The notes beneath the pieces are model-generated. The model was not told the DNA's origin, ran no database searches, and was given only the letters and a program-made list of their open reading frames with translations. 29,130 nucleotides of DNA from a bacterium (GTDB taxonomy: Bacteria > Patescibacteriota > Minisyncoccia > Phycocordibacterales > UBA5272). Each line of letters begins with the position of its first letter. Position 1 is the stretch's first letter. This document shows, one piece after another, positions 629-27,093 of the stretch. The position numbers were made by a program, and so were the translations under genes. Location: the NCBI GenBank assembly GCA_043775745.1, contig JAYVSD010000068.1:1-29130 (forward strand), in the 5' to 3' direction.

Positions 629-1828
629 TTAAAGTAAAGTATTCATGACTAATATAGACTTGGGTCCAAAGCTCTTACCATTCAATTCTGAAAGGTCTGC
701 TACCTTATAAGCTACCTGCCATGCTAAAACTGCATTGACTGTTATTTTGCCATAATAACCAGTACATTTTACATTCATAGGGAAATACCCAAGTTGTTGT
801 AGTTTTTGTTGTAGCAAGGCAATTTCAGGGCTTGTAGAGCCATATACTAGAGTACTGGAGAATATATGTTTATGTGGCTCTGATTTTCCATAAGTCCATT
901 TAGTGAATGCGGAGGCACCATAGCAATGTTTATCAAAGAATGCTTTGGTGATCGCTCTCTGTCCTGCTTTTAATGGTAGGTCAGATTTTACTTGCCATGT
1001 ACCATAGCTATCTTCAATGATAATATATTCAACACCTTTGTGGGATATAGTATCGATGGCTGTTACGGCGTGCCTTATCGCTTCGCTGTCAGATAGTCCT
1101 GTGGGCACATCTTGACACCATTCATTGTAACTAGCTTTAAATAAAGCCATACACGCTCCAAAAGTATTTATGGCTTCTGCTACTTTATAAAAACTATAAT
1201 CGTTTAAGACAATACTATTTAAAGGTTTGTCATGCACGGCTAAACTAGTATTATATATTGCATTGTCTACCTCTATATCTGACATATGTTCAGAGGGTAC
1301 ATCTTTTTCTAGGTAAGCACCATATTTAGTAGAGAAGTTTAATGCGTTTGTCATAGACATACCCGTGTTTGGTTTATTTGCTCTTGATTGAAATATTGGC
1401 GTTGCGGAGTACACTGTTAGCACTCCATCATTTTTAAAGTCTGCTACTTCTAACATTTTAGCTGTGGTTTGAGCTACACATGTACCGCTATCATCTTGAA
1501 ATCTTTGAGTATAAGATATTGGCTCTCTTTCTTGGAATGACGCACCACTGGATACTATATCCTCAAACTTGGTAAAATCACTAGTATCTCCTATCTCTGT
1601 TATACCTTTATAACTTTTAATAAAGTTTAATATAGAGCTATTATCTTTAGTGGCTACAGTTCTACCATATATGGCTAGCAATGCACCTGCTAAAGTTATT
1701 ATCATGTTGATAACATCAGTTAACTGTTGACTATTAGTCCAGTTTGCATGACCTGTGGCTTGTAACATACCCATTATTAAAGTAACCACAATACCTATAT
1801 ATGTTTTATTTCCATTTAGATTGTTCAT
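629..1828 (-). CDS. Endolysin: N-terminal holin-like 2-TM segment, papain-like cysteine peptidase, C-terminal peptidoglycan-binding domain
   Basis: QDDSGTCVAQ (catalytic Cys), HAVTAID (His) and IEDSYG (NSWG-like) motifs. PG_binding_1-like tail (L.YGS.SPEIALLQQKL...GYYGKITVNAVLAWQ). Two hydrophobic helices in aa ~9-57. Confidence 0.8.
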   Translation of the reverse strand: MNNLNGNKTYIGIVVTLIMGMLQATGHANWTNSQQLTDVINMIITLAGALLAIYGRTVATKDNSSILNFIKSYKGITEIGDTSDFTKFEDIVSSGASFQEREPISYTQRFQDDSGTCVAQTTAKMLEVADFKNDGVLTVYSATPIFQSRANKPNTGMSMTNALNFSTKYGAYLEKDVPSEHMSDIEVDNAIYNTSLAVHDKPLNSIVLNDYSFYKVAEAINTFGACMALFKASYNEWCQDVPTGLSDSEAIRHAVTAIDTISHKGVEYIIIEDSYGTWQVKSDLPLKAGQRAITKAFFDKHCYGASAFTKWTYGKSEPHKHIFSSTLVYGSTSPEIALLQQKLQQLGYFPMNVKCTGYYGKITVNAVLAWQVAYKVADLSELNGKSFGPKSILVMNTLL

Positions 1829-14352: not shown

Positions 14353-15090
14353 TTATCTTGAGCTTCTAAAGGCTGGTGTCATCATTTTTACTTCGTCTTT
14401 TGCTCTGGTGCTATAATAACTCTTGATATTTTCTTCCATTGCTAGCATATCTACTTTTAAAGATGCTGTCTGTGGTAATCCTTTTCTTAAACAGAATTGA
14501 TATGCTGGTCTGAACGCTACATATTCATGGAATACATCGGGTATACCTGGCTTTTTAGTCGTATCTGTAGACAAAAAGTAAGATGCTGTCCTATTGATAT
14601 ATATTGTTAATCCGCTAGTGTAGTTGTAGCTAGGTTTTGGGTATAGTATTATATCATTGCCTATCTTATCATAGTATTTTGGTATCCCTGCTGTTTTTAA
14701 ATATTCACTTAATGCTATTCCGCTTACATCATACTGATCAATTGGTATTAACTCTGACGCATACCCTGTAGAGTCTTTACACTCTACCCTGTAAATATCT
14801 AGCACTTGATTTGGTGTACTGCTACCATCTGTAGTAAAGGAATAATCTGCTTGATTAGCTACCACGTTAGCGTCTATTATAGGTGAATTAGTATGATTAG
14901 TATCGTCTACCTGCCACCTACCCTCTGCACTTTGTGCTAGTACAAAATAGTAAGCCAGAGTATTATTGGCGTCTCTTGTTTTTGTTGCTAAAGGATAGCT
15001 AGATGTTGTAGCACTTTGTGTACCTGTTAAGTCCTCTATGAGCTGTATTACACCAGTTCTATTTGTTGTATCGCTAAATTGCATTGACAT
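14353..15090 (-). CDS. Head-tail adaptor protein
   Basis: GIPKYYDKIGNDIILYPKP and PGIPDVFHEYVAF match podoviral adaptor-like motifs; first structural gene after the GT block. Confidence 0.65.
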   Translation of the reverse strand: MSMQFSDTTNRTGVIQLIEDLTGTQSATTSSYPLATKTRDANNTLAYYFVLAQSAEGRWQVDDTNHTNSPIIDANVVANQADYSFTTDGSSTPNQVLDIYRVECKDSTGYASELIPIDQYDVSGIALSEYLKTAGIPKYYDKIGNDIILYPKPSYNYTSGLTIYINRTASYFLSTDTTKKPGIPDVFHEYVAFRPAYQFCLRKGLPQTASLKVDMLAMEENIKSYYSTRAKDEVKMMTPAFRSSR

Positions 15091-15096
15091 GCTTTT

Positions 15097-15112
15097 AGTA
15101 TACTATGGTCGG
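15097..15112 (-). promoter_or_regulatory. CCGACC/-10 late promoter motif, leaderless, overlapping the GT2 stop
   Basis: CCGACC-ATAG-TATACT-AAAAGC-ATG(15090). Confidence 0.7.
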
Positions 15113-15795
15113 TATTTAGTATTATACTTATTCACAATATAATTTTGTAATAGTTGGCTATTTGGGTTAGCTGTCTGTTCACTCATATTATTACCATGTC
15201 TCCTCCACAATAAAGCTATATAATCTCCTACTACTGACTTATACCCTTTACATAGGCATTCTAGCCAAAATAGCCTATCCTCCCATCCTTTACGCATAGT
15301 CTCTGACTCGTCAAATCCTCCTACATCTACCCATGCTTGCTTTGGAAATAAACTGTTAGAATATATAACATTTGTTTTTAACAGGATCTCTACTGTAGCT
15401 ACTCTTGGTCTTGCTGTGTAATTATCTTTACCAAAAGCCATGAGCCCTAGTGTGACTATACTGTTATTATCAATTAACTCTAGGTGCTTTTCTACCGCTT
15501 CTGGTCTTAATATATCATCAGCATCAAATGAAAAACAATACTGTGATGTACTTGCTTTTATACCTGTATTTCTTGCACCTGATAATCCTTTGTTTTTATC
15601 ATGTTTTATATATATTACTTTTGGGTATTTATCACATATAGCCTTTGGATTGTCTGTAGAGCAGTCGTCTACTACTATTACCTCATCTGGGACTCTAGTC
15701 TGTGTGAATACACTCTCTAATGCTTTGTCTAAATAGTGTGCATAGTTGTATACTGGCATTATACAAGCCACTGTCTTATAAGAATAATCCTGCAT
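15103..15795 (-). CDS. Glycosyltransferase family 2
   Basis: IMPVYNYAHYL..ALESV..Q...EVIVVDDCSTD, GLSGARNTGI, FDADD and GWED are canonical GT-A motifs. Confidence 0.92.
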   Translation of the reverse strand: MQDYSYKTVACIMPVYNYAHYLDKALESVFTQTRVPDEVIVVDDCSTDNPKAICDKYPKVIYIKHDKNKGLSGARNTGIKASTSQYCFSFDADDILRPEAVEKHLELIDNNSIVTLGLMAFGKDNYTARPRVATVEILLKTNVIYSNSLFPKQAWVDVGGFDESETMRKGWEDRLFWLECLCKGYKSVVGDYIALLWRRHGNNMSEQTANPNSQLLQNYIVNKYNTKYRP

Positions 15796-16504
15796 ATTTT
15801 TGTTTATTATCTAATAAATATTGTGGTAAGTCACTTTCATCTTTTCTCATGTCTATCTCTCTATTATTCCACACACCCCCATCTTCGTATATTGGGTGTT
15901 GAAAAGCTTTCTGCTTTCTCTTTTTACCACCTATAGCATTGAAGTGCCACCCACCATTGTCTAGTACATCATAGCTTGTCATACTATCTGTTCTTAAATG
16001 ATTGATAACACCACTTTTTATATGTTTATACCTGCAAGCTATAGTACCTGTCCACCCTAACCAATCTTCACTAGTCCTTTGATTAAAATAGTATAGATAA
16101 GGTAATTGTTTTGGCTTATATATTACATCTTCACTATATTGTAGTAATGGGTTCCATATCTCATCTACATCTGATATAAATATTAAGTCATCATCATCAC
16201 AATTTATAAGGGCTTCTCTTACACTTTCTTTCTGTGCCCACTCTCTCACCCAGTAATGCTCTCCGTTGCCTGTATTTGGACTTTTGAGGGCTTCCTTTAC
16301 CATTTCTGGTGTATCGTCCATTATAAAGTATTCGATGTTATAATTGGCATATTTTGACTTATCAAAAGTTAGTTTCTTTTTTACTCCACTAAAGGTCTTT
16401 TCTGCCTCACAGATTATAAACTTATCCACATATGGTGCAAGTATGTTTAATCTCACATCTAATACCTCGCTCTCTCCATTATAATAAAATAGGTCTATTA
16501 TCAT
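15776..16504 (-). CDS. Glycosyltransferase family 17 (MGAT3-like beta-1,4-GlcNAc transferase family)
   Basis: LDVRLNIL..YVDKFIICEAEKTFSG, DDLIFISDVDEI and GWHF are GT17 signatures. Confidence 0.85.
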   Translation of the reverse strand: MIIDLFYYNGESEVLDVRLNILAPYVDKFIICEAEKTFSGVKKKLTFDKSKYANYNIEYFIMDDTPEMVKEALKSPNTGNGEHYWVREWAQKESVREALINCDDDDLIFISDVDEIWNPLLQYSEDVIYKPKQLPYLYYFNQRTSEDWLGWTGTIACRYKHIKSGVINHLRTDSMTSYDVLDNGGWHFNAIGGKKRKQKAFQHPIYEDGGVWNNREIDMRKDESDLPQYLLDNKQKYAGLFL

Positions 16505-17094
16505 AGCGATAGAAATATATTACTATACGACTCTTTAATAATTTTATGTGGTAAATGCTTTTTTAAAAACTCTGCCCTATTTTCTTTTTGACTTAAAAGT
16601 TCATCATAGTGATGGAACTCTATATCTAAATATTTTATTTTCTTAATATTTATTGAGTTTTCAATGATGTTACCCTCTAACCCCTCTATATCTAGCTTAA
16701 GAAAATCTACTATCGGTAATTGTTCAAGTGTAATAGCTGTTACTTCTACCTCTCCTGGTAAAAAGACACTACCGCCCCCTACATTTTGCGGAAGTCTACC
16801 AAAAGTAACTTTATCTTTGCCATATATAAGTGCGTTGTAGTGCAATTCTATATTGTGATCTTGCAAATTTTCTTGTATATAGCCTATATTACTTTGCAAG
16901 GCTTCGATTATATAAGCTTTCTCTAATGTTGTATTTTCAAACATTATTTTTGTAACTTCTCCTGTACACGCACCTGCGTCTATCATTGTTTTAATATTGT
17001 TTTCCTTTAAAGTTTCCAAAACAAATGAGAAATAAGGATTGTTATACTCATTTCTTGTATATTCTTTGTGTTTTTCTAATGTTGAAGTGTCCAT
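16501..17094 (-). CDS. FkbM-family SAM-dependent methyltransferase
   Basis: IDAGACTG, EA...N, DFLKLDIEGLE and IEFH motifs. Confidence 0.85.
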   Translation of the reverse strand: MDTSTLEKHKEYTRNEYNNPYFSFVLETLKENNIKTMIDAGACTGEVTKIMFENTTLEKAYIIEALQSNIGYIQENLQDHNIELHYNALIYGKDKVTFGRLPQNVGGGSVFLPGEVEVTAITLEQLPIVDFLKLDIEGLEGNIIENSINIKKIKYLDIEFHHYDELLSQKENRAEFLKKHLPHKIIKESYSNIFLSL

Positions 17095-17651
17095 ATATGA
17101 TATAAGTTACGTTCTATTAAATAGGCCTCCCCTGGTGTTTCATGCCAGTCACAAGCATCTCTTAATTTGATATAAAATTCCTTTGGATGTTTTAATATAT
17201 TTGCTTTGGGGATTATGTAACATCCACCGGGTGCAAACTTATTATACAGCCTCTTTTCCATATCTAGCATCTTTTTTAGTTTCTCAGTACTATTAATATT
17301 TTTAGTTGGATGTTCTAGTAAGTACCAATAATCATTTAACTCACAATATACACCGTCCTCATACCAGCATATAGGCTCGTACACAGCATGATTTTGTGTT
17401 AGCAAAGGTGTAAATACTTTATTATTCTTTACTTTATCAAACTCTTCTTTGCTTATATGTCTTTCTAGCATGTTTGTTTTACCGAAAAGCATTATTTCTG
17501 GTAAATTCTCATAGTTATCAACAATATAACACATATAATCATATATATTCGATCCCACATTTTTATCTTTCTTATCATAGAATATAGCATTTTTTGTATA
17601 TTCTTCTACCCATTCTCTATTGTGATGATAGTCATTCATTATCCATTGCAT
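17076..17651 (-). CDS. DUF3431-like protein
   Basis: NVG....Y..YIVDNYENLPEIMLF, FAPGGCYII.K..I..HPKEFY..L and AYLIER..YHIW follow the DUF3431 pattern. Confidence 0.75.
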   Translation of the reverse strand: MQWIMNDYHHNREWVEEYTKNAIFYDKKDKNVGSNIYDYMCYIVDNYENLPEIMLFGKTNMLERHISKEEFDKVKNNKVFTPLLTQNHAVYEPICWYEDGVYCELNDYWYLLEHPTKNINSTEKLKKMLDMEKRLYNKFAPGGCYIIPKANILKHPKEFYIKLRDACDWHETPGEAYLIERNLYHIWTLQH

Positions 17652-17655
17652 ATAT

Positions 17656-18441
17656 TTACTTAATTATTTCACCATTATTTTTTAACCAGTCCCACCCCTC
17701 TACATAGTTTTGTGTTAGTAACCAATAGTTTTTATTATACCTACCAAAGCCCCATGGAGCTATTACTCTTTTTACACTTTCATTTAGAAAGGCTGGCAAT
17801 ATAGCGAATGATGAATTTGATAGTATTAAATACTTTGAGTATCTTATAGCTCTCCAATTTATACCCATGTCTTGTATAATCGGATAGTCAGGGAAAAACT
17901 TTGACGCCTCTTCTTTGTCATCTGTATGCACTACAAATTGCATGTCGCTATTAGTTTTTAACATTTCTTTTACTGCCATATCAAAGTAGTTTTTAGGCAA
18001 AAAGAAGTCCGCTACATATTTATACTCTCCTCCTCTAAAGTTTATTACACATACATTTTCTGGCATATCAAGAAAATCTACCTTTAGCCACTTTCGCACC
18101 GCTGCTTTCCTGTGTTTGAAATAGTCTATTCCTTGTAGCCACCCGTGTATAAGTGTATTATCTTCTATATCTTTAAACTTGGGGTCGTAGTCTTGTGTCT
18201 CTTCTTTGTACCAGTGATCTATAGTGTCTGGTAACACTTCTGGATGTTGTCCCTCCACATTTGACTTGCCACCCATTACTATCTCGCCAAAATTTAAAGT
18301 CATAAATGAGTGCCCTTTGAAGTTCTCTGGGTATTGTATCCCAAATTTATATCCTTTATCTGAGGCTAGGCATCTAGTCGCTACATAGTTGGCTAGCTGA
18401 TTGCCTAACCCACTACCAGTGTACATTGTGGTTACTAACAT
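17656..18441 (-). CDS. Glycosyltransferase family 11 (alpha-1,2-fucosyltransferase-like), divergent
   Basis: GLGNQL, GWLQGIDYF, INFRGGEY (in place of HVRRGDY) and ILSNSSF. Confidence 0.8.
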   Translation of the reverse strand: MLVTTMYTGSGLGNQLANYVATRCLASDKGYKFGIQYPENFKGHSFMTLNFGEIVMGGKSNVEGQHPEVLPDTIDHWYKEETQDYDPKFKDIEDNTLIHGWLQGIDYFKHRKAAVRKWLKVDFLDMPENVCVINFRGGEYKYVADFFLPKNYFDMAVKEMLKTNSDMQFVVHTDDKEEASKFFPDYPIIQDMGINWRAIRYSKYLILSNSSFAILPAFLNESVKRVIAPWGFGRYNKNYWLLTQNYVEGWDWLKNNGEIIK

Positions 18442-18941
18442 GGTATTAGAACTGTTAGCCCATTATTATTTGTATATTTATCTTTTACTTTCCATTCCTT
18501 TAACTCCTCTACCGCCTGCCATAATTCTGGGCAAGACGTTGTATCATGTAATACTATATACTTCTTAACTTTACTAGCATGTAATTTTAGCTCTTGTGAT
18601 AACTGATCGTAGGTATGTAAAGTATCTACAAATAACAAGTCTACTTCGTCTATTTCTATATCTAGTGTACTTGCTTGAATAAAGTTAAAGTCAATTGACT
18701 TTTCTTTACATATTGATACTACTTTATCAAAGGACTCTTTGCCACCTTGTGGTGCATACTCTGATGGATGTTTTATATCTATGCAAGTTAACTTTTTAGG
18801 ATTACCTTCTATAAAAGCCCATGTACTCACACAATACCTGACCCCCATCTCTGTTATGCTATCACACTCTTTTGCTAATTCTGCCAGTACTGGTAAATGT
18901 TCATTTATATCGCTTGCCGTGTTACATAGTTGTTTATACAT
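18435..18941 (-). CDS. Class I SAM-dependent methyltransferase (Methyltransf_24-like)
   Basis: DINEHL..L, EMGVR...ST, DLLFVDTLHTY and IVLHDT. Confidence 0.8.
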   Translation of the reverse strand: MYKQLCNTASDINEHLPVLAELAKECDSITEMGVRYCVSTWAFIEGNPKKLTCIDIKHPSEYAPQGGKESFDKVVSICKEKSIDFNFIQASTLDIEIDEVDLLFVDTLHTYDQLSQELKLHASKVKKYIVLHDTTSCPELWQAVEELKEWKVKDKYTNNNGLTVLIPC

Positions 18942-19515
18942 ATTTTTTTCTTAAAAAAGATCCTTCCTTTTCTTTTTCTTCATTAGTTAATAAATTTGTA
19001 GCTTGATGTTCTCCTACTCCTACTGTTATATGGTCTCCTCTCAAGATTATAGGCTCTCCATATTCTCTGTACATCCTATAATAAAAATCACAATCTAATA
19101 GCCATTTTAAGTCTTCATCAAACCTCACCTTTACATCTTTATGTATTGTTAAAGCCGACGGACTACCAATCTTATTATTACCTTGTAATATATCGCCTGT
19201 GTACTTTGGATCGAGATTATCATTACAGCCCACCACAAGCCATTTTTTGCCTTTTGGGAAGGCTTTAGCAATCAATTCTAGTGTGTGCTTATTAGTAAAA
19301 TAATCATCCATGTACATTATCTTGATAATATCGCCATTACATTTGTTTATGGCATTGTTGGTATTCTGTGACGCGTTGCCCTCGCTTGTGATTATTACTT
19401 CAATATCTTTATATGTCTGTTCTTCAATAGAGTTTAAAAGCCTTGCCATAAAGTAATTAGCATTCCTCATCTTTGAATAATAGGGTATAGCTATTGATAT
19501 CATAATTTTATCCAT
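18934..19515 (-). CDS. Glycosyltransferase family 2, short (start possibly 19503)
   Basis: ISIAIPYY, N.NNAI..C.GDIIKIMYMDD, IGSPS and LLDCDFYYRM. Confidence 0.8.
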   Translation of the reverse strand: MDKIMISIAIPYYSKMRNANYFMARLLNSIEEQTYKDIEVIITSEGNASQNTNNAINKCNGDIIKIMYMDDYFTNKHTLELIAKAFPKGKKWLVVGCNDNLDPKYTGDILQGNNKIGSPSALTIHKDVKVRFDEDLKWLLDCDFYYRMYREYGEPIILRGDHITVGVGEHQATNLLTNEEKEKEGSFLRKKYV

Positions 19516-20045
19516 TCTTTAGGGCATACAGTCCTTTCTACTCCGTCTGTGTACCATTGTTTTGGTGCTATTATCAATGTAGCTTTAGATAAATAAGCCC
19601 CCCACCAAGAAAAAGAGCTATTTGCTATTATTATACCCTTGCAACTAGCAATAATATTTAAATCTTGTACCTCATCCTTGCCTTTAGAGAAAGAACACCC
19701 TTTAAATATTTCTTGTTTCTTACACCATTCTATGTCATCAGAAAATACCATAAAGCTAGCACCCAAGAACATGCTCATGGCTTTCTTATAATAGTCTGTT
19801 TTTGATAAGTCCACATAGTAACTATTATTTACATAGTCACCTCTCCTCACATGTATAGCTACTTTGTCTATCTTGCCTATGTGGTCTCCGTACAACATCT
19901 TTATGCTATCTTTGTAACTTTCAAAGTACTTTGGATCTTGCAAATATATATCTGTTATCTCACCTTTTCTCATCTGAGAATAGATATAAGCCATTTGAAA
20001 CATTCTATTCCCTAGCCTGCCAAATAGTTTATCTAGTGAAATCAT
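19500..20045 (-). CDS. Glycosyltransferase family 11 (alpha-1,2-fucosyltransferase-like), compact
   Basis: GRLGNRMF, AIHVRRGDY, FSDDIEWCK and ANSSFSWWGAYL are canonical GT11 motifs. Confidence 0.9.
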   Translation of the reverse strand: MISLDKLFGRLGNRMFQMAYIYSQMRKGEITDIYLQDPKYFESYKDSIKMLYGDHIGKIDKVAIHVRRGDYVNNSYYVDLSKTDYYKKAMSMFLGASFMVFSDDIEWCKKQEIFKGCSFSKGKDEVQDLNIIASCKGIIIANSSFSWWGAYLSKATLIIAPKQWYTDGVERTVCPKEWIKL

Positions 20046-20046
20046 T

Positions 20047-20526
20047 TTATTTTGCTTTTCTAATTTCTTTTACCTTTTCCTCTATCTCATCTCTAACTTC
20101 TACTAAATACTTATTATCTACTATTTTTAATTCTATAGCTTTTTCAAATTCTCCTAGCTCTGGCTTTACCAAGTCATTAACTATTTTATTTATTTTACTT
20201 TCTACCAAATCTATTTTCTGTTGTACTTTCTCTACTTCTTCTATTTTTAGCTTGTAGGCTTCAACTAAAGGTCTCATTTCCTCTTTTAAGGGTATTAGTT
20301 GGCTTTCTAAAGGTCTTATCTGCTCGTAAAACTTCTCTAAGGGGACTTCCTGTTCACTCATCTGGTCTAGTAAAGGCTTCTTCTCATTTTCCATAATAAC
20401 TAGTTTCTCTTGATGGAGCTTTGCCACAGTCTCGTCGTTTATTTCAATAATTCTTGTACCTGTGTAATTTTTTTCGTCTAAATATTCTTTGGGTATTTGC
20501 ATAAAATCTCTATTTGTTTTTGCCAT
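20047..20526 (-). CDS. Acidic coiled-coil protein with Pro-Leu-initiated repeats
   Basis: 159 aa, E/K-rich; PLLDQ/PLEKF/PLESQ/PLKEE/PLVEA series. The start may be the second Met (MQIPKEY). Confidence 0.65.
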   Translation of the reverse strand: MAKTNRDFMQIPKEYLDEKNYTGTRIIEINDETVAKLHQEKLVIMENEKKPLLDQMSEQEVPLEKFYEQIRPLESQLIPLKEEMRPLVEAYKLKIEEVEKVQQKIDLVESKINKIVNDLVKPELGEFEKAIELKIVDNKYLVEVRDEIEEKVKEIRKAK

Positions 20527-21545
20527 TCACTGGCGTAATTTTTAATTGAATAATTTTCTAACACATAATCATGAGCTTTATTGGCTAATCGCCGATATTT
20601 CTCATGATTATTCTTTATTTCCACGACCATATTATACCACTCGTTATTATCTGTAACAAGTGTACAATAGTCTTTATTCTGTTGATAAGGTGATAACCCG
20701 TCTGAAAATGATTGTGCTAATACTGGTATTCGTAATAATGACATCTCTAAAAACTTCAAGTTGCTTTTACATTTATTAAAATAGTGATCTTTCCTAGGTA
20801 TTATTACTAAATCCAGTGCTAGCTTGGATATATTGTACATATAGTCCGTTACATTACACAACGGGTGCCATTCCACATTGTTAAGTGATTGCCAAAAGTC
20901 TAAGTCTTCTTGCATAGAGCTTGCCAAAAGCTTACCATTTGCTAATTTAACACCCATGACCACTATAGTTATATCATTTCTATCGTCTAGTTGTTTAATC
21001 TGTTCTTTAATATGGAAATAATCGTCATTTGTAGTCACTGATCCTATAAACCCTATACGGAACTTACTTGTTATATTAACTTTACATTTAAACTCGTCAT
21101 TTGGGTCTATGGTGTTCTTTAGCACCACTGTATTTTTGTTTATTTTACTGTATTCTTCTTTTAATATTTCTGTAGATGTAGTTATACCATGAGCTATTTT
21201 GCAAAACTCATTTAAGTTATTGTTTAGCTCTTTGGCTATTTCTACCTGTTTATTATTACCTAGTCTATGTAAAGGTATACCAGAATAGGTGTCATCATTA
21301 TCCATGATTATATATTTCCCTTTTGATTTTAATAGTTTTGCTAACTGTAGAGAGTTATTCCCTGTTGGTCTTTGAAAGCATACTATATCTGCCCTCATCG
21401 CTTTTTTTGTTAGCTCTTCTGCATTTTGTGTTGTGCCACTATTGATAAATTCTGATATTACTTGCTGATTAGAATAAACCCCAGGTAAATATCCTCTATA
21501 GTAGTAACAAAAATTATAATCTCCTTGTATATATAATATATTCAT
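20478..21545 (-). CDS. Glycosyltransferase, GT-B fold (GT4-like)
   Basis: CYYYRGYLP, ADIVCFQR, IMDNDD, RIGFIGS and DLVIIP...FNKCKSNLKFLE. Confidence 0.85.
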   Translation of the reverse strand: MNILYIQGDYNFCYYYRGYLPGVYSNQQVISEFINSGTTQNAEELTKKAMRADIVCFQRPTGNNSLQLAKLLKSKGKYIIMDNDDTYSGIPLHRLGNNKQVEIAKELNNNLNEFCKIAHGITTSTEILKEEYSKINKNTVVLKNTIDPNDEFKCKVNITSKFRIGFIGSVTTNDDYFHIKEQIKQLDDRNDITIVVMGVKLANGKLLASSMQEDLDFWQSLNNVEWHPLCNVTDYMYNISKLALDLVIIPRKDHYFNKCKSNLKFLEMSLLRIPVLAQSFSDGLSPYQQNKDYCTLVTDNNEWYNMVVEIKNNHEKYRRLANKAHDYVLENYSIKNYASEWQKQIEILCKYPKNI

Positions 21546-21865
21546 TATTTCTTTTGTAACAACTCTAATATTTGTGCTAGACTGCCTTCCATGCTATTAA
21601 CTTTACTTTCTAACTCTTGTATCTTATTTGGCTGTACTGTCCTTTGCTCTACCGTAGCTATTGGGGCTGATACTTGTGTGGCTTCTGTTGCCGCCGTATT
21701 TTTGTCTTTCTCTTTAGCTATAAGTTCCTGCATTCTCTCTTGATTGACTACTCTACCTCCTGATATTATTACTCCCCCATTCGCTTCGTCTACCATTTCT
21801 CTTATTGTACCATTTAAGTTTCTAACAGTTCTATTCCTATAAAGATTACCTATTGTGATTGACAT
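21545..21865 (-). CDS. Hypothetical protein, first gene of the glycosylation block
   Basis: 106 aa with a C-terminal coiled coil; TAATG overlap with the GT4-like gene. Confidence 0.7.
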   Translation of the reverse strand: MSITIGNLYRNRTVRNLNGTIREMVDEANGGVIISGGRVVNQERMQELIAKEKDKNTAATEATQVSAPIATVEQRTVQPNKIQELESKVNSMEGSLAQILELLQKK

Positions 21866-21871
21866 ATATAC

Positions 21872-21877
21872 ATTATA
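21872..21877 (-). promoter_or_regulatory. -10 box for a leaderless transcript of the GT block (no CCGACC)
   Basis: TATAAT-GTATAT-ATG(21865). Confidence 0.55.
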
Positions 21878-21878
21878 T

Positions 21879-21907
21879 AAACAAAAACACCCCCTGTAAA
21901 GAGGTAT
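21879..21907 (-). terminator. Putative intrinsic terminator after the capsid gene
   Basis: Minus strand ATACCTCTT-TAC-AGGGGGTGT stem (three G-U pairs) followed by TTTTGTTT. Confidence 0.55.
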
Positions 21908-21927
21908 CTTTGTTTTTCTGTGGATAA

Positions 21928-22875
21928 CTATAGTCCTACAGCCAAGCTGTGACTTCTGATTTTAACGGCAGAGTCAACCCTATTCTGTACTACACCAAAA
22001 CATAAGTCTACGGTAACTAGTTCACCTAGATACTCTTGAATGTATGATTGCTGTACACGCACACCTTCGCTACCTACAAAGCCCATATCCGCTTTAACTG
22101 GCATTGACATGCGAGCCCAGTGGATAGAGTCATTGTGTGCTAGCATATTAAGCCTAGCGGAGTTCTCACCTACTGCACCAGCTCCTAGTGGAACAGCTGG
22201 AGACACTATAACGGGGATACTGTACAATGACCTTGTAGGTGCTTTTGTACGAGGTAGCTCTGTCTGTGTATTCTGCCATAGTGTAAGCTTATCTACAGAG
22301 CCAATTTGTCTGTAGAAAGTGTTAGGATGGAATATCCATGCTACATCACCACCGTATACTGGTACACCTGTAGTTTCAAGTATAGAGATCGCGGCTAATA
22401 GTGAGGAGTCTGCTATATTGCTACCAGCAGTACCCAATATTTGATTAGCTACCGTAAAGTTAGTAAACTGTGCTGCAATAGCGTCATCTAGGTCTTGAGC
22501 TACTTCCCAAGCACAAGCTTTTGCAAACTTATCTTGTAAGTAGTAGCTTTTCTTTAGTTGAGCCATTTCTCTATCTTCGATAACAAAACTTGACTCTTTC
22601 CATGTTGATACAGTCAAAGTTACTTTTGTCTGTATAGGATTATTAAGAGTCACCTGTGTGTTATTAGCTTTAACAGTAGTCGCCATAGCCACTATATTAG
22701 GAGTGTATACGTCTGATCCACCATCCACTAACTCCTCACTTCTATCAATAAAGAACTGAGCTAAAGATAGATTGTATCTAAAGTAGTCATTTATTTTCTG
22801 CCCCCACAATAACGGAATATCTGCTGTAAGAGAGCCTCCTACACCACCACCCATTTGATTTGAGCCTAATGCCAT
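21928..22875 (-). CDS. Major capsid protein (HK97 fold; P22-coat/N4-gp56-like)
   Basis: 315 aa after the scaffold gene; IP.LWGQKI, G.DVYTP, AWEVAQDLDDAI and VDLCFGV...R pattern. Confidence 0.85.
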   Translation of the reverse strand: MALGSNQMGGGVGGSLTADIPLLWGQKINDYFRYNLSLAQFFIDRSEELVDGGSDVYTPNIVAMATTVKANNTQVTLNNPIQTKVTLTVSTWKESSFVIEDREMAQLKKSYYLQDKFAKACAWEVAQDLDDAIAAQFTNFTVANQILGTAGSNIADSSLLAAISILETTGVPVYGGDVAWIFHPNTFYRQIGSVDKLTLWQNTQTELPRTKAPTRSLYSIPVIVSPAVPLGAGAVGENSARLNMLAHNDSIHWARMSMPVKADMGFVGSEGVRVQQSYIQEYLGELVTVDLCFGVVQNRVDSAVKIRSHSLAVGL

Positions 22876-25866: not shown

Positions 25867-27093
25867 TTACCTTGAATAATTGCCTGCTTGATTACTTCTA
25901 GCTTGCCTCCTTAAGTATTTATCAAGGCTAGATGTATCAGTGTCTATATTTAGATCCTCCATGGCATACCTGCTAGCGTCAATGCAATGATCGTTACCTC
26001 CCTCTGGGACCCCTGCTATTATCACTCCGTTTCTGTCTATTTTCCACATATACCTTTTATACTCATCTATTAGATTTATAGAGCTCTTTGTCATTGATAT
26101 CCTTTGTCCTTGTACCATGCTAATACCATGTCTTACAGAGTCAGGACCTTTCTTCGCACCTACTATAGCTACATCATATAAAGCTATCTCGTCTATAGAC
26201 TTTGGCTCGGAGGAGTCTGCTATCACTAACGCCTGCTGTTCTTGCCTCTTAATTATATCTGCTAATTGATTATTAAAAAATCCTTTTTTATAAAACACTT
26301 CATCTAATATAAAGCCCCCGTTATACCTATACACCGCTACTATCGCTGCGGGGTCGTTAGAATAGCCAAAATCTAGCCCATAACGCTCTAGTCTAGCTTC
26401 ATGTGGTATCTCGTCTATGATAGCCCAATCTTTAAATATACGCCTTTCTGCACTCGCTGGTTCGCCTAGCCATTTATGTTTATACAATGCTGGTCTTTTA
26501 TCTTTGTCATCCTCCATCTCTAGCTTTATAACTTCTGGCATCATATTATACTTCAAAGCTATTTCATAGTTTACATTGATTATTAGTGTATTGGGTCTAC
26601 CCTCTATTACTAATCTTTGGTGTACTGGATCATCCTCTAAAAGTCTATTGTATGTGTATATAATCTTTGATCCTTTCTTACGTACTGTTGGTGTTAGTGT
26701 CTCTATGGAGCTTTTACTTATAGACTGAGATTCTTCACACCAAACAATATCAAGCCCCTCTATAGACTTTATACTTTGCTCATTATGTTTTAATCCTTTG
26801 AATAGGAAATCAGATCCGTTTATCTTATTTACTATAGAGTTATTTGTTACTTCAAAATCATTTAATCCATATAACTTTATTAAATCTGCAAGTAGCTGGT
26901 GAGAGCTATCACCTATAGAGTTTTGGAATTCACGGAAGCAACCCACTCTTGTTTTCTTTTGCCTTGCCATTATAAGTAAATACCTTGCTACTGTGTGTGA
27001 CTTTAAACTGAAGCGACCCCCATATATAGCCGCTTCTCTCCAATCCTCATCAAATAGCTTTTTATATTCAATTGGTATCTCTATTGTTTTCAT
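25867..27093 (-). CDS. terL: Terminase large subunit, PBSX family
   Basis: YGGRFSLKSH (Walker A region), FREFQNSIGDS, IKSIEGLDIVWCEE (Walker B), TYN coupling motif, GLDFGYSNDP, ADSSEPKSI and NDHCIDASRYA. Confidence 0.95.
   Translation of the reverse strand: MKTIEIPIEYKKLFDEDWREAAIYGGRFSLKSHTVARYLLIMARQKKTRVGCFREFQNSIGDSSHQLLADLIKLYGLNDFEVTNNSIVNKINGSDFLFKGLKHNEQSIKSIEGLDIVWCEESQSISKSSIETLTPTVRKKGSKIIYTYNRLLEDDPVHQRLVIEGRPNTLIINVNYEIALKYNMMPEVIKLEMEDDKDKRPALYKHKWLGEPASAERRIFKDWAIIDEIPHEARLERYGLDFGYSNDPAAIVAVYRYNGGFILDEVFYKKGFFNNQLADIIKRQEQQALVIADSSEPKSIDEIALYDVAIVGAKKGPDSVRHGISMVQGQRISMTKSSINLIDEYKRYMWKIDRNGVIIAGVPEGGNDHCIDASRYAMEDLNIDTDTSSLDKYLRRQARSNQAGNYSR

Follow-up and report, generated by a model that had tools for sequence, protein, structure and literature searches.

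A glycosyltransferase gene conserved beside the capsid gene and a hypervariable island of probable glycan enzymes in uncultured podophages

The closest described counterparts of the locus reported here are glycosylation cassettes of mycobacteriophages. Corndog (Cluster O, gp35-38) carries an O-methyltransferase, two glycosyltransferases (GTs) and a GlcNAc-transferase within its structural operon (PMC4351075), and the C-termini of mycobacteriophage capsid and tail-tube proteins carry glycans (Freeman 2023, as cited in PMC12619734). The locus in question is a block of eleven open reading frames (ORFs), c01 to c11, on contig JAYVSD010000068.1 (C68), the whole of which, 29,130 bp, is the stretch of DNA analysed (the window). 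It belongs to an uncultured tailed podophage of ~36 kb. As in Corndog, Che8 and Myrna, soluble GTs and O-methyltransferases are found within an operon of virion structural genes. The likeness is drawn at family level, and glycosylation, demonstrated for the mycobacteriophages, is a prediction for the present system. In contrast to the mycobacteriophage cassettes, nine enzymes (seven probable GTs and two methyltransferases) are found here, at the capsid-adaptor site, in an ORF block of 6,763 bp that takes up ~19% of the 35.7-kb podophage genome. One GT is universally conserved beside the capsid gene and is accompanied by a hypervariable island that sometimes includes nucleotide-sugar synthesis genes.

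Three other kinds of described system share features with the block. In chlorovirus PBCV-1 and giant viruses, multiple soluble GTs, sugar methyltransferases and GDP-fucose/rhamnose enzymes glycosylate the capsid in the cytoplasm (PMC9614988, PMC5408694). The combination of GT, sugar methyltransferase and GDP-fucose genes is similar, their glycans being methylated and containing fucose or rhamnose, and proteins of the DUF3431 fold as well as c02-like GTs also occur in giant-virus proteomes. However, these viruses have eukaryotic hosts, genomes of >300 kb and dispersed genes, whereas a 36-kb bacteriophage with a compact single locus is found here. Pelagimyophages and cyanomyophages contain hypervariable blocks of GT and deoxy-sugar genes beside structural genes, which are read as host O-chain modification (PMC7029224). 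These phages are large T4-like myophages with GT8-rich blocks among tail-fibre genes, and descriptions of them mention no conserved core GT beside the capsid gene. DNA hypermodification clusters (Pyle et al.) contain GT-A and GT-B enzymes related to those of lipopolysaccharide (LPS) and teichoic-acid synthesis and sometimes lie near structural genes, but they require 5mYOX/TET or ThyS partners, which are not found in the near-complete relatives of the present phage. In the literature searched, no small podophage is described as having a core GT beside the capsid gene together with a hypervariable island.

The routine annotation of GT genes in environmental phages is DNA protection or host serotype. 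To our knowledge, experiments have demonstrated that phage-encoded enzymes glycosylate the virion in no more than a few mycobacteriophages. The block is plausibly, though this is unproven, a structural-operon glycosylation cassette of that known kind, and what appears new is the conserved core GT with its hypervariable island. On balance the data favour virion-protein glycosylation, with c02 as the conserved initiating GT and the island as a variable set of elaborating enzymes.

The comparison that carries this reading was made at the capsid-adaptor junction of related phages. A capsid-based scan gave 27 close relatives in IMG/VR, with capsids 59–89% identical, and 26 of these loci extend past the capsid gene. 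All 26 show c01 and c02 after it. The lineage with capsids at least 72% identical has c04-c11, with gains and losses; in the lineage with capsids ~60–65% identical, only c01, c02 and c03 are found before the adaptor gene. The capsid-to-adaptor gap measures 1.9–2.0 kb in these core-only loci and 6.9–9.7 kb in the extended ones, and the island between c03 and the adaptor gene ranges from zero extra genes to ~12. Adaptor homologues close the island in relatives.

A scan with a deep c02 alignment extended the comparison to at least 472 viral contigs, from which 57 distant loci were analysed, with c02 35–41% identical to that of the window. The order portal, scaffold, capsid, c02 is kept in all 55 of the 57 loci that include c02, and over the close and distant sets c02 is syntenic with the capsid gene in at least 80 loci. 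Most distant loci, though not all, have a small ORF between the capsid gene and c02. The c03 hidden Markov model (HMM) matches the ORF immediately 3′ of c02 in 43 of the 57. Thirty-two distant loci contain both c02 and the adaptor gene; 20 of these have only the c03-like ORF in between and 12 have one to four more ORFs, while further distant loci run past the 4-kb flank analysed.

The first-pass annotation of the window had described one eleven-gene pathway inserted between capsid and head-tail adaptor. Eleven abutting or overlapping ORFs and both flanking genes are present as described, and the cassette is conserved in every relative long enough to show the junction. The picture of a single inserted pathway does not hold: c02 and c03 form a head-module core and c04-c11 are one variant of an island. 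Nor are the genes recently captured host fragments lacking conservation at this locus, given the c02 synteny in close and distant loci. From the gene order, c02 and c03 are taken to be an ancestral part of the head module in a very large group of phages, and c04-c11 to be the form that a hypervariable island, bounded by c03 and the adaptor gene, takes in this phage. The comparative result makes the finding broader than was first stated. Across hundreds of metagenomic phage contigs a GT belongs to the head module no less than do the scaffold and adaptor. The three ORFs at the capsid side of the block are:

21545..21865, minus strand: c01, 106 aa, no family; N-terminal domain with a GG.II..G.VVNQE motif, variable linker and C-terminal helix
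20478..21545, minus strand: c02, 355 aa, GT-B GT4-type glycosyltransferase, the core enzyme; phrog_7162, E = 7e-32
20047..20526, minus strand: c03, 159 aa, highly charged coiled coil with no family; KR 18%, DE 23%

c02 had been called GT4-like. As a single sequence it falls below the Pfam threshold (PF13524, 14.5 bits versus 25), yet the assignment is borne out by phrog_7162, by the family profile and by structure. The profile, built from 86 sequences, matches GT4 chains in PDB (BshA, PglA, TreT) at E-values of 2e-11 to 1e-10. The AF2 model (pLDDT 95, pTM 0.93) displays the GT-B fold of two Rossmann domains, and a Foldseek search with it gives PglA, MshA, HepE, GlgM and BshA at E-values of 1e-13 to 1e-9. 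Further structural neighbours are TarM, TreT and SenB as well as the protein O-glycosyltransferases SdgB, Gtf3 and GtfC. A homology search yields 3793 representatives at E ≤ 1e-3. K260, S261, K264 and E267 are invariant or nearly so in the 86 sequences and lie in the segment FNxCKSNxKFLE, which is placed on the EX7E region by eye only, with Cys at the position of the first Glu.

c03 gives no family in Pfam, PHROG, NCBIfam or Atlas searches. Similarly, c01 shows no Pfam, PHROG or NCBIfam match and nothing usable from the Atlas search. Its conservation directly after the capsid gene is confined to the close clade, and in the distant lineages it is not detectable; its linker is not consistently Ser/Thr-rich.

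The island of the window consists of eight ORFs, each with at least one family or profile match:

19500..20045, minus strand: c04, 181 aa, mini GT11 (alpha-1,2-fucosyltransferase family); PF01531, 91.2 bits versus 23.9, profile positions 125-295
18934..19515, minus strand: c05, 193 aa, GT2 (GT-A); PF00535, 25.0 bits versus 23.3
18435..18941, minus strand: c06, 168 aa, S-adenosylmethionine (SAM) methyltransferase (Methyltransf_24, CmcI-like); PF13578, 29 bits versus 26.3
17656..18441, minus strand: c07, 261 aa, divergent GT11-like protein; phrog_2644, E = 7e-13
17076..17651, minus strand: c08, 191 aa, DUF3431 protein with a GT-A-like predicted fold; PF11913, 29.4 bits versus 25
16501..17094, minus strand: c09, 197 aa, FkbM-family SAM methyltransferase; TIGR01444, 43.4 bits versus 37.7; PF05050, 28 bits
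15776..16504, minus strand: c10, 242 aa, GT17; PF04724, 66.2 bits versus 26, profile positions 75-272 of 348
15103..15795, minus strand: c11, 230 aa, GT2, soluble, without GtrB-type transmembrane (TM) helices; PF00535, 122.9 bits; maximum KD19 hydropathy 0.99

The first-pass inventory of a GT4-like enzyme, two GT11, two GT2, a GT17, a DUF3431 protein, two SAM methyltransferases and two unknowns is correct. All of the six GTs of four families it counted are supported, and the number is raised by c08 as a probable seventh GT with a predicted GT-A-like fold. The two GT11 proteins fare differently: c04 exceeds the PF01531 cutoff, but c07 is only GT11-like, with no Pfam match and without the HxRRxD motif.

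c04 is without profile positions ~20–125 of the usual ~290-aa GT11 and is 180–200 aa long in every relative. Twelve relatives share the motifs GxLGNxMFQ, HVRRGDY and ANSSFSWW, with H65, R67 and R68 invariant. Since both the shortness and the motifs are conserved in all relatives, c04 is not a fragment. Most of the N-terminal (acceptor-side) domain is absent and all donor-side motifs are retained. Such a mini GT11 may need a partner protein or use an unusual acceptor. The possibility that c03 and c04 are one frameshifted GT11 was considered and rejected, c03 being a charged coiled coil and the shortness of c04 being kept in all relatives.

c07 is homologous to c04 (hhalign 98.8%, E = 6e-17), with NFRGGEY in place of the HxRRxD donor motif, and a PDB sequence search with it is empty. 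The description that fits it best is that of a GT11-like protein within the fucosyltransferase superfamily. The c05 family profile matches chondroitin synthase (1e-12) and GalT1 (1e-11), and acidic motifs of the DxD type are found in c05 (YMDDY) and c11 (FDADD).

The AF2 model of c08 has a pLDDT of 96. Its top 50 VIA-align matches are almost all GT-A glycosyltransferases or nucleotidyltransferases, among them WbbM (Z = 7.7) and STIV A197 (Z = 6.9); the best Z of 7.7 is borderline and within the range of common arrangements. Foldseek against PDB gives E-values above 1, the PDB sequence search is empty and no DxD motif is seen. The modelled fold suggests that c08 is probably the seventh GT of the cassette.

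c06 also scores 22.5 bits against PF04989, just under the 23.2 cutoff, and is found in about half of the close relatives. c09 is found, besides the window, in only one relative (L003). From the gene context, the substrate of both methyltransferases would be a sugar.

Relatives carry other glycan genes in the island. In L017 a true GDP-mannose 4,6-dehydratase (GMD) gene adjoins the GT11 gene (TIGR01472, 420 bits versus a cutoff of 415). Short-chain dehydrogenases/reductases (SDRs) scoring below the cutoffs resemble GDP-fucose synthase (Fcl-like) in L009 and L011 and dTDP-glucose dehydratase (RmlB-like) in L009, L013 and L020. An RmlA-like nucleotidyltransferase is present in the island of L002, and a DegT/PseC aminotransferase and a DUF5672 protein in that of L013. 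Islands of close relatives also have extra Methyltransf_24 genes and HNH/NUMOD homing endonucleases. Pfam searches of 83 island ORFs from distant lineages show GT2 in 16, and in addition several SAM-methyltransferase families, GT11, GMD/epimerases, DegT, LicD, PIG-L, polysaccharide deacetylases and GT4. No flippase, polymerase or polyprenyl-phosphate transferase is among the families identified in the cassette or the islands. An analogous block directly follows the capsid gene of MW202801.1 (L117, 19272-24303), an uncultured podovirus from Manatee Spring, and consists of a radical-SAM-like gene, a GT, a PhyH dioxygenase, a methyltransferase, a NodB-like deacetylase and a c02-like GT.

It had been noted that nucleotide-sugar synthesis genes are missing from the window, and family searches of the window proteins found none. 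The metagenome-assembled genome (MAG) with which the phage is binned, 80% complete, has no GMD-like gene and no GT11 outside the phage contig. The earlier suggestion of a probably fucosylated glycan gains support, as c04 keeps HVRRGDY and relatives place a true GMD and Fcl-like reductases beside GT11.

HNH/NUMOD genes lie in the island or between the capsid gene and c01 at L010:9147-9650, L010:12043-12573, L011:11479-12033 and L035:9942-10610. Homing endonucleases may drive the exchange of island genes. In some distant relatives the capsid gene itself is split by an inserted ORF (L073:2052-3673 and L079:2107-3765, also in L070 and L104). The L073 insert has a LAGLIDADG-type motif (IAGLIDGEG) and the L079 insert is a Cys-rich HNH-type ORF; by these motifs, the inserts look like intron- or intein-borne homing endonucleases.

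The eleven ORFs tile positions 21865..15103 on the minus strand between the major capsid and SU10-type adaptor genes, with junctions from a 49-nt overlap to a 4-nt gap. Spacers of 62 nt and 12 nt separate the block from the capsid and adaptor genes, respectively. A hydropathy scan finds no TM helix in any cassette protein. The flanking genes, and the sites in or near the spacers, are:

21928..22875, minus strand: major capsid protein, 315 aa, upstream flank; phrog_267, E = 4e-14
21872..21904, minus strand: terminator-like hairpin (21904-21891, then a T-run) overlapping a promoter-like TTTACA-17-TATAAT (21900-21872); consensus scan, 11/12 matches
15097..15112, minus strand: CCGACC-N4-TATACT motif, 6 nt 5′ of the adaptor ATG and overlapping the c11 stop codon; sequence reading
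14353..15090, minus strand: SU10-type head-tail adaptor, downstream flank; PF24175, 30.6 bits versus a cutoff of 27

The promoter-like sequence ends 6 nt 5′ of the c01 ATG, within the post-capsid spacer. These sites and the CCGACC-N4-TATACT motif are consensus or motif matches only; the latter was proposed as a late-promoter motif in the first-pass annotation. Across window positions 15001-22000 the GC content of the cassette is 0.31–0.35, that of the capsid gene 0.41 and that of the tail and fibre genes 0.38–0.42.

Five near-complete relatives measure 33–39 kb, two of them with terminal repeats, and none shows an integrase; complete relatives span 36–39 kb. An alignment scan with the capsid against the genomes of 185,579 species gave no match and no prophage copy. 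As there is neither integrase nor prophage copy, the lifestyle of the phage group is likely to be lytic.

From enzyme identities, predicted solubility, conserved synteny and island variability, all computed here, we infer the target, the order of steps and the chemistry as follows. The enzymes would be active late in infection, in the cytoplasm of the host, with a virion protein as substrate. c02, a GT4-type and retaining enzyme whose gene is usually followed by c03, would put the first sugar on a structural protein in these 33–40-kb podophages, the capsid subunit being the leading candidate. The GTs of the island, namely the mini GT11 (a probable fucosyltransferase), the GT11-like protein, the two GT2, the GT17 and the DUF3431 protein, would then extend and branch the glycan, which the FkbM (c09) and CmcI-like (c06) methyltransferases may cap by O-methylation. 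For the phage of the window the nucleotide sugars would be supplied by the host, and islands of relatives appear to encode GDP-fucose genes and other genes for 6-deoxy- and amino-sugars.

A virion target is favoured because all eleven genes lie, abutting or overlapping and on the same strand, inside the head-to-tail gene string. Virion glycosylation is also favoured by the deep conservation of c02 at the capsid gene, by the variability of island size together with island contents that are glycan enzymes, and by the soluble cassette proteins, the likely lytic lifestyle and the lack of DNA-modification precursor genes. The mycobacteriophage precedent and the structural neighbours SdgB, Gtf3 and GtfC of c02 point the same way. 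The first-pass annotation had added very Ser/Thr-rich structural proteins as possible acceptors. This is seen for the tail and fibre proteins, at 20–28% Ser plus Thr, which is usual for fibres, but the capsid has only 14.9%.

Several observations weigh against a virion target. Across lineages, island size is not tracked by capsid loop insertion, C-terminal extension or Ser/Thr content. A short, variable C-terminal tail with Ser/Thr is found in nearly all capsids of the group and is close to chance expectation; the tail recalls the C-terminal glycosylation reported for mycobacteriophages (cited in PMC12619734). The best fold matches of c02, i.e. PglA, MshA and BshA, act on lipid-linked or small-molecule acceptors, and a target in the host envelope is compatible with the lack of TM helices, as lipid-linked intermediates of the host are also substrates of soluble GT4 and GT2 enzymes. 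The GC content of the cassette is ~5 points below that of the neighbouring structural genes, and the promoter-like site and terminator-like hairpin before c01 suggest that the block may be regulated separately from the capsid gene. The sequencing runs that contain the phage are DNA only, with no RNA run among them.

A wider reading is offered tentatively and is held with less confidence than virion glycosylation as such. In it the conserved capsid-adjacent GT4 and its coiled-coil partner would prime a virion protein, and the hypervariable island would write a strain-specific, often fucosylated or methylated glycan coat, a phage counterpart of the O-antigen locus, in a large, globally distributed and wholly uncultured podophage group, with exchange possibly aided by homing endonucleases. 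The adjoining island reaches ~20% of a 36-kb genome, and some lineages' islands carry their own sugar-nucleotide supply. If the particle is the target, this would be the clearest genomic signature so far of glycan coats as an ancient, diversifying feature of a phage lineage, and phages would vary to a large and so far overlooked degree in their virion glycans, with effects on adsorption, stability, grazing or the evasion of immunity and defences. The compact set of soluble GTs is open to direct assay, in particular the mini GT11, the DUF3431 protein and the GT17.

The main rival is remodelling of host cell-envelope glycans during infection (LPS/capsule, teichoic acid, S-layer or pilin), which we regard as unlikely. 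The acceptors would be lipid-linked molecules or proteins of the host at the inner face of the membrane, and possible benefits are that superinfection is blocked or that progeny are kept from adsorbing to debris. GT4, GT2, GT11, FkbM, LicD, DegT and RmlA/B are typical of O-antigen and capsule loci, the hypervariability of the island is like that of host O-antigen islands, and such modification is the usual published interpretation for GT clusters of aquatic phages (PMC7029224). c11 matches the 'GtrB-like O-antigen conversion' PHROGs (E = 5e-14), and the nearest folds of c02 (PglA, TarM, MshA) use lipid-linked, teichoic-acid or small-molecule acceptors. However, the cassette contains no TM helix, and the GtrA, GtrC, Wzx, Wzy and phosphoglycosyl-transferase families are absent among the matches. 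With no integrase and no prophage copies there is no setting for lysogenic seroconversion. The position in the head module by the capsid gene is fixed over very deep divergence, unlike that of morons or host-recognition clusters, and the single GT of the core-only phages could hardly rebuild a surface polymer. A Gtr-type seroconversion module in particular was rejected, as the cassette has no TM segments, the five relatives have no integrase and no prophage copies are found.

Less probable still is a morphogenetic or other non-coat role of c02 and c03, with the island as exchangeable auxiliary cargo that has no common target. As examples, c02 might make a soluble glycoside, modify a host cytoplasmic protein or be packaged and ejected. 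The closest folds of c02 do include the small-molecule GTs BshA, MshA, TreT and SenB, c03 and c01 have no recognisable function, and the homing endonucleases in the island show that insertions are tolerated. Against this, the contents of the island are not random but overwhelmingly glycan-pathway enzymes in independent lineages, and the GT11 genes adjoin donor-synthesis genes, which indicates a coherent pathway.

Glycosylation of phage DNA, i.e. sugar hypermodification of bases against restriction, was an alternative target in the first-pass annotation and is very improbable: phage enzymes of the GT-A and GT-B folds are able to assemble glycans of one to three sugars on 5-hydroxymethylcytosine and such clusters sometimes lie near structural genes, but known pathways need a 5mYOX/TET or ThyS-type hydroxymethylase (10.1101/2023.12.21.572611), and among the five near-complete relatives TET and ThyA-like genes are found in none (the TET control matched in no genome, so that the TET test is weak) and a C5-methyltransferase in one, a core-only phage, while the larger non-structural ORFs scanned in two complete genomes show no polymerase or nucleotide-metabolism function, and seven GTs including GT11 and GT17 together with sugar methyltransferases exceed any known DNA glycan.

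Virion glycosylation remains the preferred reading, and the remaining observations concern the phage genome and its source. All genes of the window are on the minus strand, in the order terminase large subunit, portal, scaffold, major capsid, the eleven ORFs, SU10-type adaptor, tail, ejection and fibre genes, and endolysin. The terminase gene is placed as follows:

25867-27093, minus strand: terminase large subunit; PF04466

The endolysin-like protein (window 629-1828) displays a papain-type Cys peptidase (PF00112, at threshold) and a PG_binding_1 domain. No tRNAs or Rfam families were found in the window.

The identical gene string was independently assembled on a 35,742-bp ENA contig and a 10.6-kb Logan contig. 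As two independent assemblies show the same gene string, the cassette is not an assembly artefact. The phage is detected in two sediment metagenomes of a single study, with sampling years 2021 and 2023. A megablast search of an isolated-phage collection with the window gave no match. The best capsid match among isolated phages is Arthronema virus TR020 (25% identity), in which that site lacks a GT.

Within a very fragmented bacterial MAG of 0.55 Mb, the 16S of which is found on C56, no contig is longer than that of the phage. An Atlas search with the RpoC of this MAG gave no taxa. A genome size of 0.55 Mb is typical of bacteria of the candidate phyla radiation. Only binning joins the phage to the MAG; the tetranucleotide correlation is 0.925, and blastn-short shows no sequence shared between the window and the remaining MAG contigs; the link is weak and a host inferred from the binning is unreliable.

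The larger non-structural ORFs of the two complete genomes include lysis enzymes, ERF, homing endonucleases, a Ros/MucR-type regulator, a metallophosphatase and a Ro60/TROVE protein. The last is encoded at L033:2973-4442 in the complete relative G001 and combines TROVE/Ro60 and vWA domains (PF05731, E = 1e-27). Near it, at L033:7044-7997, the Ros/MucR-type regulator is found fused to HNH-associated repeats.

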